A DNA stretch of 64,000 bases from Escherichia phage OliverMaurmann_Bas86: the sequence record PQ850622.1. One strand, 5' to 3'. The notes below the pieces were generated by a model that searched no databases, had not been told where the DNA came from, and saw only the letters and a program-made list of their open reading frames with translations. Position numbers and translations under genes: made by a program. This document shows, one piece after another, positions 7,743 through 44,090 of this stretch; positions within the stretch are counted from its first letter, which is position 1; every line of letters begins with the position of its first letter.

Positions 7743-8255
7743 ATGGCAATGCCTGACTTAAAGGGTGTTTTTACTTATAACCAAGACACTGGACACCTCT
7801 TTTGGTCTATGAGTAATGTTTATAATAAGAAGAAAGGACAGAGAGCTGGTTGCATTAATAACAAAGGCTACAGAGTTCTGACCTTTAAAAATAAATCTTA
7901 TTTAGAGCACAGAATCATTGCAGAGTTATTCTTACCTAAAGTGGAAGGAAAGAATCAGATTAATCATAAGAATGGGATTAAGGATGACAACCGCCTAGAA
8001 AACTTAGAATGGTGCACAGGTAGTGAGAACTGCTTACATGCTATTAGTATAGGTCTTAGAGAAGTGAAAAGTTTAGAGGAAAATCCAAACGCTAAACTTT
8101 CTAAAGAGGATGCTCTATTCTGTCTTCAGAACTATAAGCCTAGAAGCCGTCAGTTCGGAGCTAGAGCATTGGGTCGAAGATTTGGAGTATCTAAAAGTAC
8201 AATCAGCCTTCTTGTGAAAGGCGAAAACTGGAAGGAGTTATTATATGATGCCTGA
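7743..8255 (+). CDS. HNH homing endonuclease (HNH_3-type with N-terminal Y..DTG.L.W motif)
   Basis: 170 aa; motifs GYRVLTF...HRIIAELF...INHKNGIKDDNRLENLEW; preceded ~40 nt upstream by TAATGTATT. Confidence 0.8.
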   Translation: MAMPDLKGVFTYNQDTGHLFWSMSNVYNKKKGQRAGCINNKGYRVLTFKNKSYLEHRIIAELFLPKVEGKNQINHKNGIKDDNRLENLEWCTGSENCLHAISIGLREVKSLEENPNAKLSKEDALFCLQNYKPRSRQFGARALGRRFGVSKSTISLLVKGENWKELLYDA

Positions 8256-32176: not shown

Positions 32177-32826
32177 TATTGAATCATCCCTTGAAGATCT
32201 TCTTTATCAAAGTGCTTCTCTACTACCGCTTCATACAGATCACGATTCTCCGAATAACGGCGATAGAAGGTTCCGTGTGAAATTCCCAGCTCTTGTTGGA
32301 TGTGATCATGAGGAATACCGAGGAAGAGCATTGAGAACATACTTGCCATCTTGCGGTTTTCCATAATATCACTTAGGTCTTGGAAGAAGAAAAAGATTCT
32401 AGATTCCAAGAATGGGTCTCCAGTAGAATCATGCTTATCCATAGCAATCTCTAAAGGACTTTCCCATGAATTCATCTCGGGAGGTCTAAACATATCAGCC
32501 TCTGGAATAGAATAGATACGTCTGTCTCCAACTGTCTGACGATTAGAACGAATCGACCAGATGATATTCTTCACACGATAAGTCATGTGTTCAATATCTT
32601 TTTCATCGGTAAGCAGTAGTTCTTCTTGCTTTGCAAATACAAAACGCCAAGAGTTCAGTAACACTTCCTGAGCAACATCCTCTGCTTCGTGATAATCTTT
32701 AATGTCGTACATAAAATACTTATGCACAACTTTCCAATTCTCTCGATAGAATTCATCGAAGGTTGGGTAGTACTTAATAGGTATGCCATGAATACGATAG
32801 CGTGTGGGTGTTGTCTTTTTCTTCAT
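32176..32826 (-). CDS. Phage-encoded sigma-70-family sigma factor
   Basis: 216 aa; region-2-like [12 protein letters not shown] and C-terminal HTH-like [16 protein letters not shown]. Confidence 0.7.
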
Positions 32827-32850
32827 AAGTCATCCTTAACTTACTTTACA

Positions 32851-33075
32851 TTAAACTACACAGAATAAATACATTGCTGTTTCAGGGGAAGGTATGTGGT
32901 CACTAGGATATCTAACCCTAATCCACTCATCATCTTCTGCTACATAATAAGCCCAATAAGACCCATTTTCATTAATAAAGAACTTGAAGGTACAACCAAA
33001 GATTTGGTTATTGTGTTCCCATACTGCATGAAACTGAGTAACACCTTCTGGTATTGTAAGTTCCGCTCTGATCAT
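32851..33075 (-). CDS. Hypothetical protein
   Basis: 74 aa ORF. Confidence 0.35.
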   Translation of the reverse strand: MIRAELTIPEGVTQFHAVWEHNNQIFGCTFKFFINENGSYWAYYVAEDDEWIRVRYPSDHIPSPETAMYLFCVV

Positions 33076-33371
33076 TGTATTCCTCTCTCCTTTAGAGCTT
33101 TAAGCAAACCGTTGTGGTTAGCGGCACAGGTTGTATAATTGTCCTGATACCACTCGAGTGTTGTTGCAAGTGCTACTCCCTGTCCACTCTGAAGTAAAGG
33201 GAGGTCTACATCACATTCAGCTTTTAGGTTTGTTGGTAAGGGCATTAGCTGCCTGCTGTTGTCGCTCGTTGAACAAGCCATCAAACTAGAAGCGAGCAAA
33301 ATCACCAAACAACTCTTTTGCTTTTTCTTTGTAAGCATTTTCTGCACCTTCTTGAGTGCTATGATAACCAA
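33072..33371 (-). CDS. Lipoprotein (o-spanin candidate); true start probably the internal Met (MLTKKKQK...)
   Basis: Signal peptide with lipobox L-M-A-C (KKKQKSCLVILLASSLMAC); small mature domain with 3 Cys. Confidence 0.4.
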   Translation of the reverse strand: MVIIALKKVQKMLTKKKQKSCLVILLASSLMACSTSDNSRQLMPLPTNLKAECDVDLPLLQSGQGVALATTLEWYQDNYTTCAANHNGLLKALKERGIQ

Positions 33372-33780
33372 GCCAAATTACTTTGTTTTGATATCCGATA
33401 CGAGCACTCCATTTATTAATATCTGACCTGTATCCTACACCTTTTATTCCAGTTAAAGAGTTCTTTTGAACTATTTTATTGGCATTGTTGAGGACAGGTG
33501 TTGCTTTTCTTAGATTGCTCCAAGAGTTATTAGACTTATCTAAATCTTTATGGTCTATTTGGAAATCGGGAATTTCTCCAGTTTTTATATACCAAGCAAC
33601 TCGGTGAGCTTTGTATGTCTTTCTCTGAAAATTCAATGTTACATAACCAGCTTTTGTTTTACACCCTGCAACCTTTCCTGCGAGTCTTGAGTTCCACTGA
33701 GCGCTCTTATCTTTAGAATGTTTCCAGTACAGAAGACCGGAAGCCTCGTCATAAGACAGATATTTAATTAATTCTTTAAT
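33286..33780 (-). CDS. HNH homing endonuclease (HNH_3 + AP2-like), predicted ATT start
   Basis: ORF track starts at TTG 33636, but the frame stays open upstream and encodes the conserved N-terminal YLSYDEASGLLYW module; only candidate initiator is ATT 33780-33778, 7 nt after GGAGG. Confidence 0.55.
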   Translation of the reverse strand: MKELIKYLSYDEASGLLYWKHSKDKSAQWNSRLAGKVAGCKTKAGYVTLNFQRKTYKAHRVAWYIKTGEIPDFQIDHKDLDKSNNSWSNLRKATPVLNNANKIVQKNSLTGIKGVGYRSDINKWSARIGYQNKVIWLGYHSTQEGAENAYKEKAKELFGDFARF

Positions 33781-34109
33781 TTCAGTGCCTCCGCTGCTTG
33801 TTGTTGTCGTTCATTGAAAAGTCCTACATACTCATCACTAGCACACACATTGTAAAAAACTGGCTTAGTCTTTTCATAATGCATCTCTTTGTAAATAGTT
33901 TCCGTGTTCTTCTTCCAGTTAGATAAACCAGTCAGAACTTTCTGAGCCACTTCATCAGCAGCCTTAGCTCTCTCAACCTCAATCTCTTGCTGTTTCTTCT
34001 CTTGGTCAAGAGCATTACTATCACTTCTGTATTGCTCAAACTTGACACCACCAAAGAAAACCAGAGCTGTGAAGATTAAAAAACCTATATTGTTTTGAAG
34101 CTTTTCCAT
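33768..34109 (-). CDS. Membrane-anchored coiled-coil protein (i-spanin candidate)
   Basis: N-terminal TM segment IGFLIFTALVFFGG then charged coiled coil; ATG 34109 with GGAG RBS preferred over the GTG 34133 of the ORF track, which lies inside a terminator hairpin. Confidence 0.45.
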   Translation of the reverse strand: MEKLQNNIGFLIFTALVFFGGVKFEQYRSDSNALDQEKKQQEIEVERAKAADEVAQKVLTGLSNWKKNTETIYKEMHYEKTKPVFYNVCASDEYVGLFNERQQQAAEALKLKN

Positions 34110-34122
34110 TTTAACTCCAACG

Positions 34123-34145
34123 AAAAAAGCCACCCGAAGGTGGCT
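34123..34145 (-). terminator. Rho-independent terminator after SSB gene (AGCCACC-UUCG-GGUGGCU + U6 on - strand)
   Basis: Read directly; near-identical hairpin recurs at 37031-37054. Confidence 0.6.
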
Positions 34146-34167
34146 AAGCTATTACAAGGAGAGATTC

Positions 34168-34908
34168 TTAGAATGGGCTATCATCTTCTTCAAAGGTTGA
34201 TTGCGGCTCTTCGTTAATGGTAGGAATACTTGGAGTAGCATCTTTCTGTTCAGTGTCAGAAGCTTTAGTAACTTCACGACCAGCCAGAGGGATATTCTTA
34301 GCATCGTTAGCTTGAGTCAAGAGGTTACGTTGGAATGGGAAGATTGCTTGATAAGCAGCTAAGTTAGCGTCAGTCTCAGCATACGGTTCGAAGAAGATCA
34401 ACTCACTACGAGGAGCACCTACCGCGTCACGATATTTAGTCGGGATTGGAGTGATGCTTTTAATGGAGTTTTTCTTCTCACCAGCTTTATTGGTGTAAGA
34501 GTTAACCAGAATGTTAACAGGCTGACCTAACAGCATATCTTTAAACCAACCCAAATCACCTTTCAGTGCTTGAACACTTGGGTCGATCATTTTAATCAGA
34601 TTTAGAATACCAGAGTTCTTAGCTCGTGGGTTTACATCAAAAGATTTAAACTGGCAAGCAGGACGAGGGTCCAGAGGTTTGCCTTCATTATCAGTCCCTG
34701 TTGCATCTACGCCAATCAGCTCAAAAGCTAAGTCCATACGGAAAGCTGGGTTCTTAGGAGTAACTGCTTTGGTTTTAGGGTCAATCCAAGGGTCACGATT
34801 GTGAACACCCAAACCTACAACACGAACAATACGTGCTTCGTACTCACCATCAGGGATTACATCGTAGTTGGATTTACGGGATACAGACAGTTCAGGGATC
34901 ATAGACAT
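34168..34908 (-). CDS. ssb: Single-stranded DNA-binding protein
   Basis: 246 aa; acidic C-terminal tail ending EEDDSPF, like the SSB C-terminal DDDIPF-type interaction tail. Confidence 0.65.
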   Translation of the reverse strand: MSMIPELSVSRKSNYDVIPDGEYEARIVRVVGLGVHNRDPWIDPKTKAVTPKNPAFRMDLAFELIGVDATGTDNEGKPLDPRPACQFKSFDVNPRAKNSGILNLIKMIDPSVQALKGDLGWFKDMLLGQPVNILVNSYTNKAGEKKNSIKSITPIPTKYRDAVGAPRSELIFFEPYAETDANLAAYQAIFPFQRNLLTQANDAKNIPLAGREVTKASDTEQKDATPSIPTINEEPQSTFEEDDSPF

Positions 34909-42976: not shown

Positions 42977-43624
42977 TTAACTCTCCAAAGTTTTCTTCAA
43001 AGCTGCCCATGAGATTGGATAGAGTTTAGCCATCTCTTCATCTAATGACTGAGCAAATAGTCGAACTTCATATTGAGCATGGGATGATAGTCGTTGACGA
43101 CACAATTCAAACCAGCCATACAAGCTACCAGTCCAGTACCAAGTAGTTACCATACCTTGAGGTAAAACAAATCTAGCTTGTTCAGGAGCTACGAACTTAA
43201 TCAATTCGTCATAACTAGCAAGAGATGCCTCGTACGCAGAGTTAAACAAAGCTAAAGCTTTTGCCTCTTCCTCCCCTTCAAGAAGTATTCCAGAACCAGA
43301 ATGTAGATCATCTGGACGGGAGAAGATTTCTTTAGGTATGAAAATATCCACTGCTCCATCTTTATATCTACGACTCATCTCGTTCCAAGAAAAACCAACT
43401 TGATGCTTCTGTAACTGTCGTGCAATTGCTATAGGAGCTTCGCATCTGAAGCTCGCTTGTGGGTGACGAAAAGGACTTACGTGTCGTTCCCGAGCTAGAA
43501 AATTTATTAGACGAGTGTCACTTTCTTTTAATTCTTCCCTTTCTACCCCCATAGTTACACGAGCAGCATTGACTACTGTAAGATCTGAACCGAAGTTATC
43601 AATTAATGAAGCTTTGATTGTCAT
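42977..43624 (-). CDS. thyX: Flavin-dependent thymidylate synthase (ThyX)-like protein, divergent signature
   Basis: 215 aa; collinear with ThyX but the RHR....S motif reads KHQVGFSWNEMSRRY. Confidence 0.7.
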   Translation of the reverse strand: MTIKASLIDNFGSDLTVVNAARVTMGVEREELKESDTRLINFLARERHVSPFRHPQASFRCEAPIAIARQLQKHQVGFSWNEMSRRYKDGAVDIFIPKEIFSRPDDLHSGSGILLEGEEEAKALALFNSAYEASLASYDELIKFVAPEQARFVLPQGMVTTWYWTGSLYGWFELCRQRLSSHAQYEVRLFAQSLDEEMAKLYPISWAALKKTLES

Positions 43625-44090
43625 TTATGTAAGTCTCCTTGACTTTATTATATTCCCTAGAGGCTTCTTCTATGGTTGAGAAGAGTCCTATGTGCTTAGA
43701 TTTAAATACCGCCCGGTAAGCAATAGAGCCACTTTTCCTTCTATGGACAGTCACTCCAATCACTCCGGTTGATAAATTATTACTCTGAGCTACTTTGTTT
43801 AGGCCATTTCCTGATCTAGTAGTCCCCCTAAGATTCTCTCTTTTGTTGTTTATCCTGTTGCGGTCTATGTGATCTACTTCTTCAGGAAGCAATCCAGTGT
43901 CCCACCAGTAAGCAAGTCGATGAGCGTAGTATCTAGCACCTTTATAAACGATTCTCAAATACCCATTGGTATTTACAGAACCAGCTATAGACCCTTTGTG
44001 TCCTTTTCCATAAGTTTTAACCCATCGGAAATCTCCAGTCAAAGGGTCGTAATCAAGAGCTTCTTTTATTGACGGGTCAATATCATTCAT
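43599..44090 (-). CDS. HNH homing endonuclease (HNH_3 + AP2-like)
   Basis: 163 aa; YDPLTGDFRW, GYLRIVYKGARYYAHRLAYWW...VDHIDRNRINN. Confidence 0.75.
   Translation of the reverse strand: MNDIDPSIKEALDYDPLTGDFRWVKTYGKGHKGSIAGSVNTNGYLRIVYKGARYYAHRLAYWWDTGLLPEEVDHIDRNRINNKRENLRGTTRSGNGLNKVAQSNNLSTGVIGVTVHRRKSGSIAYRAVFKSKHIGLFSTIEEASREYNKVKETYINDNQSFIN

Follow-up and report, generated by a model that had tools for sequence, protein, structure and literature searches.

We analysed the spanin locus of Escherichia phage OliverMaurmann_Bas86 within a 64,000-nt stretch of its DNA (sequence record PQ850622.1; hereafter the window). On the minus strand of this locus, a gene for a predicted HNH homing endonuclease lies between the two genes of a spanin pair and overlaps both of them, the i-spanin gene upstream by 13 nt and the o-spanin gene downstream by 53 nt (Table 1). 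The HNH reading frame is open from 33810, after a TGA stop at 33813-33811, to a TAG stop at 33288-33286, and its first ATG, GTG or TTG is the TTG at 33636-33634. This triplet is codon 49 counted from an upstream ATT, which is preceded at a spacing of 7 nt by a GGAGG Shine-Dalgarno (SD) site. Translation from the ATT would yield a protein of 164 amino acids with the predicted N-terminus (M)KELIKYLSYDEASGLLYWK. An earlier note, made from the sequence alone, had predicted an ATT-initiated HNH gene at this place; the frame, the coordinates, the absence of ATG, GTG or TTG before TTG 33636, the SD site with its 7-nt spacing, and the overlaps with a gene for a transmembrane and coiled-coil protein on one side and a lipoprotein gene on the other, as described there, all hold.

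Table 1. Features of the spanin locus in the window (positions in nt; SD, Shine-Dalgarno; AF2, AlphaFold)
Feature	Position	Strand	Basis or detail
HNH homing endonuclease gene	33286..33780	-	164 codons plus stop, proposed ATT start
N-terminal module, residues 1-48	33637..33780	-	dN/dS (nonsynonymous to synonymous rate ratio) and AF2 model
HNH_3 catalytic motif, residues 56-94 (...AHR...IDHKD...NLR)	33499..33615	-	Pfam PF13392, E 6.5e-14
AP2 DNA-binding domain, residues 110-159	33304..33453	-	Pfam AP2 28 bits, under its cutoff of 33.3; structural superposition
Proposed ATT initiation codon	33778..33780	-	No other near-cognate codon among the 10 open codons ahead of the conserved module has an SD site
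SD site GGAGG, within the last codons of the i-spanin gene	33788..33792	-	7 nt before ATT
Mobile cassette, 547 bp	33279..33825	-	Junctions GAGTATGT/.../GCTTGTTC by alignment with HNH-less UKE3, which has CA there
i-spanin gene, 113 amino acids, N-terminal transmembrane segment	33768..34109	-	ATG 34109, TAA end 33768; phrog_1152 Rz-like spanin, E 2.6e-33
o-spanin gene, 88-amino-acid lipoprotein, lipobox Cys	33072..33338	-	Signal peptide MLTKKKQKSCLVILLASSLMAC (...LLASSLMAC); matches phrog_2425; same open reading frame annotated as O-spanin in SU7
Original i-spanin tail reading frame, LFNERQQQAANALTNKPKS then stop	33217..33278	-	Identical to HNH-less UKE3; now serves the o-spanin frame alone
Relic of the original o-spanin start, 17 codons, MKRLSQFFTMCVLVMSM then stop, inside the i-spanin gene	33824..33877	-	Frame continues as MKRLSQFFTMCVLVMSMSAC... 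in UKE3

The identity of the predicted product was examined by profile searches and structure modelling. The Pfam HNH_3 profile matched with 51.7 bits, above its curated cutoff of 24.8, and phrog_99 ('HNH endonuclease') covered residues 2-163 with an E value of 3.7e-58; residues H59, R60, H77, N85, N89 and N98 were invariant in the homolog alignments. The C-terminal domain of an AlphaFold (AF2) model superposed on plant AP2/ERF domains (AtERF1 and TEM1) with a root-mean-square deviation of 1.1-1.4 Å and a probability of 1.00. The closest protein of solved structure by sequence was I-HmuI (1U3E), with a weak match (E 0.011, residues 52-104); a Foldseek search against the PDB returned a match for the AP2 half only, and it is by this weak sequence match that the N-terminal and HNH half is tied to I-HmuI. 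Homologs found by tblastn in T5-like and many other phages aligned from residues 1-4 of the HNH protein. Alignment likewise confirmed that the 164-residue product is collinear with two further HNH genes of the window, at 7743-8255 on the plus strand and 43599-44090 on the minus strand, both of which start with ATG 3-5 residues before the ATT position. These two HNH_3 paralogs comprise 170 and 163 amino acids and are 26-32% identical to the enzyme at the spanin site; the one at 7743-8255 carries a helix-turn-helix-like C-terminus in place of AP2. By its family assignments, the predicted product is a free-standing homing endonuclease of the HNH_3 plus AP2 type, an ordinary phage kind, in agreement with the identity that the earlier note had given it.

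The HNH gene is carried on a cassette whose borders were defined by alignment with UKE3. The cassette was exactly 547 nt long in all eight phages compared, with only about 52 nt of it lying outside the HNH open reading frame, and the cassette-free junction reads ...GATGAGTATGTCAGCTTGTTCAACGAGCG... The proposal that an HNH gene had inserted between two halves of a spanin-like pair can accordingly be refined to a cassette of 547 bp inserted where the i-spanin and o-spanin genes overlap; in HNH-less relatives, this overlap is direct. In UKE3, the i-spanin has 115 amino acids and ends in ...YVSLFNERQQQAANALTNKPKS, and the o-spanin, running on from the start relic listed in Table 1, is encoded across it in a second frame. 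The pair comprises an i-spanin with an N-terminal transmembrane segment and a small o-spanin lipoprotein with a lipobox Cys, and its genes overlap in UKE3, as expected of a two-component spanin.

Both spanin genes are rebuilt by the cassette. At its 5' end, the cassette carries a copy of the original i-spanin tail, (G)LFNERQQQAA, with only synonymous differences from the original, followed by a new ending, EALKLKN, and a stop codon. The last approximately 19 codons of the i-spanin gene are this recoded copy, and because the cassette supplies both the tail and its own stop, the i-spanin is complete without the DNA downstream. The TAG that closes the old o-spanin start arises exactly at the left junction. 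At the other end, the C-terminus of the HNH protein (...NAYKEKAKELFGDFARF), which is typical of its family, is encoded by the same bases (33286-33338, minus strand) that in another frame encode the o-spanin signal peptide, and this new signal peptide meets the original lipobox Ala-Cys two codons past the right junction. The last 19 HNH codons showed no synonymous change either between the window and SU7 or between E20-1 and KM01, against a proportion of synonymous differences (pS) elsewhere in the HNH gene of 0.38-0.44 for the window and SU7 and of 0.23-0.44 over both comparisons. The signal peptide MLTKKKQKSCLVILLASSLMAC has apparently replaced the original MKRLSQFFTMCVLVMSMSAC, and its sequence suggests an origin de novo by overprinting on the endonuclease gene.

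The distribution of the cassette was then examined among related phages. The region matched phiEco32-like coliphages of the subfamily Gordonclarkvirinae, the closest being SU7, Bas87 and PAS59 (94-95% identity). An HNH gene was present at this place in 8 of the 98 matching records, representing six phages (SU7, Bas87, PAS59, E20-1, KM01 and EK010), while about 90 of the 98 aligned in two pieces with approximately 545 nt missing. Cassette and flanks showed discordant histories. Between the window and Bas87, the cassette was identical (547/547, 100%) and the flanks were 92.4% and 89.1% identical; between the window and SU7, the order was reversed (cassette 91.3%; flanks 97.3% and 99.8%). E20-1 and KM01 shared 95.8% identity in the cassette and 82% and 77% in the flanks, and SU7 and UKE3, from which the cassette is absent, had flanks 99.7% and 100% identical. 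Combined with the presence/absence polymorphism, such discordance implies a recently moved homing element with a working endonuclease. On these comparisons, the cassette is mobile and recently transferred, and its endonuclease is evidently active. A search of IMG/VR for further versions yielded only distant homologs in the protein scan, and two scans with exact DNA patterns yielded nothing or 14 unrelated chance matches. In the literature, no paper was found on this insertion, its start codon or the joined spanin annotation of Bas87; the BASEL paper goes no further than 'homing endonuclease insertions' in Gordonclarkvirinae, and the SU7 paper mentions neither spanins nor HNH.

We next considered the part of the HNH frame that lies upstream of its first canonical start, which the earlier note had assigned to the protein as a conserved N-terminal module. 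For codons 5-48, comparison of the window with SU7 gave a pS of 0.44, a proportion of nonsynonymous differences (pN) of 0.11 and a dN/dS of 0.18 in the HNH frame. In the two remaining frames, which both contain stop codons, these bases gave dN/dS values of 1.27 and 1.14. From this contrast with the control frames (0.18 vs about 1.2), we infer that the region is translated. Between the two main clades of the insertion (clades A and B), pS reached 0.93 and pN 0.28 over these codons, and the LSYDE codons, which precede the first canonical start in clade B, differed between the clades by four synonymous changes and no replacement. In the AF2 model (mean predicted local distance difference test (pLDDT) score 84), strands at residues 8-11, 16-19, 47-51 and 54-57 preceded the HNH helix; residues 1-20 were modelled as a β-hairpin of the first two strands with pLDDT values of 91-93, and initiation at TTG 33636 would make residue 49, within the third strand, the first of the product. 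Judged from its substitution pattern, the start-less N-terminal region is coding and constrained as protein, and the assignment of the module to the protein is upheld by purifying selection confined to the HNH frame, by conservation among homologs and by pLDDT values above 90.

A canonical start is available elsewhere in the family. Seven metagenomic homologs and both window paralogs have an ATG 3-8 residues ahead of the ATT position, and since all 24 of 24 distant homologs examined (from metagenomes and IMG/VR) carry an upstream ATG, the canonical start is absent only in the lineage inserted at the spanin genes.

In this lineage, the start region is conserved in a different form. The window, Bas87, SU7 and PAS59 share GGAGG CACTGAA ATT (spacer at 33787-33781 in the window), the divergent metagenomic phage L066 has GGAGG TGCTGAA ATT, L067 has GGAGG TACTGAA ATC, and clade B (E20-1, EK010, KM01 and L011; 66% amino acid identity to the window) has GAGGG TTTTAAA ATC. 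An SD site followed by 7 nt and ATT or ATC was found at the aligned codon in all ten of these related versions, the window included, and in each of the ten the i-spanin stop occupies positions +11 to +13, counted from the first base of ATT/ATC. Despite variation in the neighbouring bases and in the overlapping i-spanin residues (AEA, TEV, AEV, KRV), the GAGG core is preserved. The predicted pairing with the anti-SD sequence before the ATT was -9.5 kcal/mol. Of 51 long genes in the window, 80% pair more weakly, and only 0.6% of random positions attain this value, a pattern beyond chance expectation. L066 and L067 gave -10.8; clade B gave -6.3, approximately that of the median window gene. In clade B, an in-frame stop lies just four codons upstream of the ATC, so translation there must begin within a few codons of it. 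A T_TTA_AAA motif also lies about 6 nt before the ATC in clade B (L004, L006, L007 and L011), perhaps by coincidence, the sequence being AT-rich.

These results make SD-directed initiation at ATT/ATC the best and most economical explanation for the HNH start, and on the sequence evidence we regard it as probable. The ATT is the sole near-cognate codon with an SD site in the interval from the upstream stop to the start of the conserved module, and relatives have ATT or ATC in its place, which agrees with the view of the earlier note that it is the only plausible initiator. A sequencing error, raised there as an alternative, is ruled out by the independent genomes that carry the same arrangement. 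A scan of the window for other long open reading frames lacking a start returned the HNH gene alone on a coding strand, and another ATT-initiated gene predicted by the same reader was not located. Initiation at AUU, AUC, AUA and CUG in E. coli occurs at about 0.02-3% of the AUG level, and infC and pcnB are the only confirmed AUU genes of that species (bioRxiv 10.1101/063800). The genome announcement of Salmonella phage f18SE (PMC4599075) states that 10 of 53 coding sequences begin with AUU, an implausibly high share that more likely reflects an annotation oddity than biology.

Several observations weigh against initiation at ATT/ATC. Both triplets are also ordinary isoleucine codons, and their retention alone cannot distinguish a start from an internal codon. 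An ATG at this place would not be lethal to the i-spanin, costing it the last 3 residues in clade A and a Ser to Trp replacement in clade B, and because this cost is small, the overlap does not force the absence of ATG; selection for low expression and mere tolerance of low expression are alternative reasons for the unusual codon. Clade B carries, besides a GTG or ATG at codon 13, a canonical T_TTA_AAA slippery heptamer in the start region. In L009, a metagenome contig whose protein is 71% identical to that of the window, the T run is one base longer, and the conserved GAGGG, 7 nt and ATC are out of frame, the i-spanin TAG being immediately followed by the HNH frame. This contig offers another ATT in frame, preceded by AAGGA and 7 nt, and the shift may represent a real recent frameshift, initiation at that other ATT or an error of assembly. 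Finally, a literature search found no formylmethionine N-terminus, toeprint or start-site ribosome profiling for the HNH start. The L009 run itself is a T7 run, GATTTTTTTATC, with one base more than in clade B (positions 1080-1130; ENA ERZ22233142 NODE_35).

One alternative explanation is that only a truncated protein is made from an internal canonical start and that the upstream module is dispensable. Internal starts do exist (TTG 33636 in the window, GTG in SU7 and PAS59, GTG or ATG at codon 13 in clade B), gene callers have given products of 116 amino acids in Bas87, 128 in SU7 and PAS59, 152 in E20-1, EK010 and KM01 and 100 in L066, and a truncated protein would retain the DH...N...N motif and the AP2 domain. 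However, these starts vary in position and lack SD sites (-4.2 kcal/mol at TTG 33636), and the region preceding them is conserved across the family and shows purifying selection in the HNH frame alone. Initiation at the TTG would also cut through a confidently modelled β-sheet of which the N-terminal module forms half. The 48-residue module matches in position the I-HmuI segment before its residue 49, which, in the paper on 1U3E, is reportedly a segment that contacts DNA. Exclusive production of the short form is thus unlikely.

Decay of the gene was judged less probable still. Under this explanation, an unexpressed homing endonuclease has lost its ATG, and the SD site and the ATT are incidental. 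The 164-codon frame is intact in every version except L009, where the 1-nt disruption near the start would suit a decaying gene, and dN/dS stayed at 0.09-0.23 over divergences that, from the origin of the ATT/ATC state onward, have become saturated at synonymous sites. Degeneration after fixation is expected of homing endonuclease genes, but this cassette is polymorphic rather than fixed (about 8 of 98 records), and its transfer is recent, as indicated by a 100% identical cassette within flanks that have diverged by 8-11%.

A slightly smaller probability still was assigned to translation as an i-spanin-HNH fusion, through a -1 frameshift from the i-spanin gene or through stop readthrough where the two frames coincide. 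The HNH frame is in the -1 register relative to the i-spanin and overlaps its last codons, the heptamer of clade B (E20-1, EK010, KM01 and L011) stands in the correct register, and dnaX shows that an SD-like site upstream can promote frameshifting in the -1 direction. No X_XXY_YYZ heptamer was present, however, in the overlap of the four clade-A versions inspected (the window, SU7, L066 and L067), and folding of 121 nt around the start against shuffled sequences showed no excess stability and no significant downstream structure that might promote a frameshift (z score +0.39 in the window and +1.30 in E20-1). The predicted pairing of the window SD site was not conserved in SU7, and a regulatory structure is not supported. 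In L009, the frames coincide with a TAG between them, so a third recoding mechanism would be required. An i-spanin is anchored in the membrane by its N-terminus with its C-terminus toward the periplasm, and a fusion would tether a DNA endonuclease to this anchor, facing the periplasm and away from DNA. The -1 frameshift that the earlier note had put forward for testing is disfavoured by the missing heptamer and by this topology. Lastly, the idea that the cassette is an intron-like sequence spliced from the i-spanin mRNA can be dismissed almost outright: the Rz-like spanin coding sequence of Bas87 (PQ850594.1, 492-1384) is annotated as a two-piece join flanking the HNH gene, and past the cassette the original i-spanin tail can still be read as an open frame, but an Rfam scan of 32800-34400 found no group I or group II intron or other family even at E ≤ 10 (noise only), the approximately 52 nt beyond the HNH frame are too short for an intron core, the upstream i-spanin copy ends at an in-frame stop of its own and is complete (113 amino acids vs 115 in UKE3), and splicing would also strip the o-spanin of its signal peptide, so the two-piece join looks like an annotation artefact.

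Upstream of the locus, a strong terminator-like hairpin (AGCCACC TTCG GGTGGCT followed by a T run; 34128-34145, minus strand) lies about 20 nt before the i-spanin ATG. In a promoter and terminator search, nothing within the cassette exceeded the expectation from shuffled sequences, and the sole good terminator was the one upstream of the i-spanin gene. Expression of the spanin and HNH block may depend on read-through past this hairpin or on a promoter of its own.

Taken together, the evidence argues with good probability for a mobile HNH cassette that occupies the spanin overlap and whose endonuclease is translated from AUU or AUC. In the mechanism we propose, a free-standing HNH_3 plus AP2 endonuclease gene on a 547-bp cassette sits inside the overlap of the two spanin genes, both host genes being kept intact by the recoded i-spanin tail with its stop and by the new o-spanin signal peptide. 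Initiation at AUU (AUC in other versions), directed by the strong SD site 7 nt upstream, would produce a separate protein of 164 amino acids, with a possible contribution from ribosomes that terminate at the i-spanin stop, 10 nt downstream. At an AUU efficiency of roughly 0.02-3% of AUG, output would be low, as befits a nuclease that may be toxic. In co-infected cells, cleavage or nicking of cassette-free phage genomes by the enzyme at the spanin junction would be followed by repair that copies in the cassette.

A more far-reaching version of this proposal is offered only tentatively, and we consider it somewhat less probable than its opposite. The nuclease may have evolved a dependence on its AUU/AUC start 10 nt before the i-spanin stop, such that synthesis is held to about 1% of the normal level and tied to translation of the lysis gene (or to late fidelity of initiation factor 3, IF3), giving control of dosage and timing; the cassette would then act as a self-contained repair kit that permits colonisation of the overlap without cost.

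The full-length reading of 164 amino acids differs from all gene models inspected. The HNH protein is cut to 100-152 amino acids, at four different arbitrary internal starts, in each of the seven public annotations examined as well as in the metagenomic gene calls, and one record models the spanin as spliced. Two features of the locus are unusual: the apparent ATT/ATC start conserved across versions, and a cassette that un-overlaps the spanin genes and carries an overprinted signal peptide. If initiation at AUU/AUC is true, a conserved and evidently functional non-canonical start in an E. coli phage would join the very short confirmed list of infC and pcnB, and it would suggest that selfish nucleases can employ weak start codons as a throttle. 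The cassette also illustrates how a mobile element can invade two overlapping genes with both kept working. The system is tractable, as Bas87, which has the cassette, and close cassette-free relatives such as Bas88 belong to a public phage collection that grows on E. coli K-12.

Compared with known systems, the enzyme has the same domain order as the free-standing HNH endonucleases of phages (phrog_99, for example T5 hegI/P-TflIX, with I-HmuI as structural reference), namely an N-terminal β-hairpin module, a ββα-Me HNH motif (AHR...DHKD...NLR) and a C-terminal AP2 domain, and it is 40-43% identical to the enzymes of T5-like phages. It also resembles them in its sporadic presence at one fixed site and in a history discordant with that of its flanks. 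Unlike the 24 distant homologs and both window paralogs, all of which have ATG, the HNH gene at the spanin site lacks a canonical start in every version, and it sits inside an overlapping gene pair, unlike HNH genes that lie between genes or in introns.

With infC and pcnB of E. coli, the proposed start shares a near-cognate AUU behind a good SD site, conservation in orthologs and an expected low output. It differs from them in belonging to a selfish phage element rather than a housekeeping gene, in a codon that alternates between AUU and AUC, in having no known IF3 feedback, and in lying 10 nt upstream of the stop of the preceding gene, where termination-coupled reinitiation may contribute.

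The insertion of mobE into nrdA of phage Aeh1 ('genes in pieces') is a case in which a homing endonuclease gene splits another gene whose function is kept. The cassette described here is similar in that a free-standing endonuclease gene lies within essential or useful coding sequence and host function is preserved by the way the insertion is built. Its target is instead an overlap of two genes in two frames, which was un-overlapped by duplicating and recoding about 35 nt, and, again unlike mobE, it replaced the o-spanin signal peptide by one overprinted on the 3' end of the endonuclease gene. The spanins themselves resemble Rz/Rz1 of phage lambda, with a transmembrane i-spanin and a lipoprotein o-spanin, and in cassette-free relatives the o-spanin gene starts inside the 3' end of the i-spanin gene; in the window, unlike in lambda, the two spanin genes overlap the HNH gene and no longer each other.

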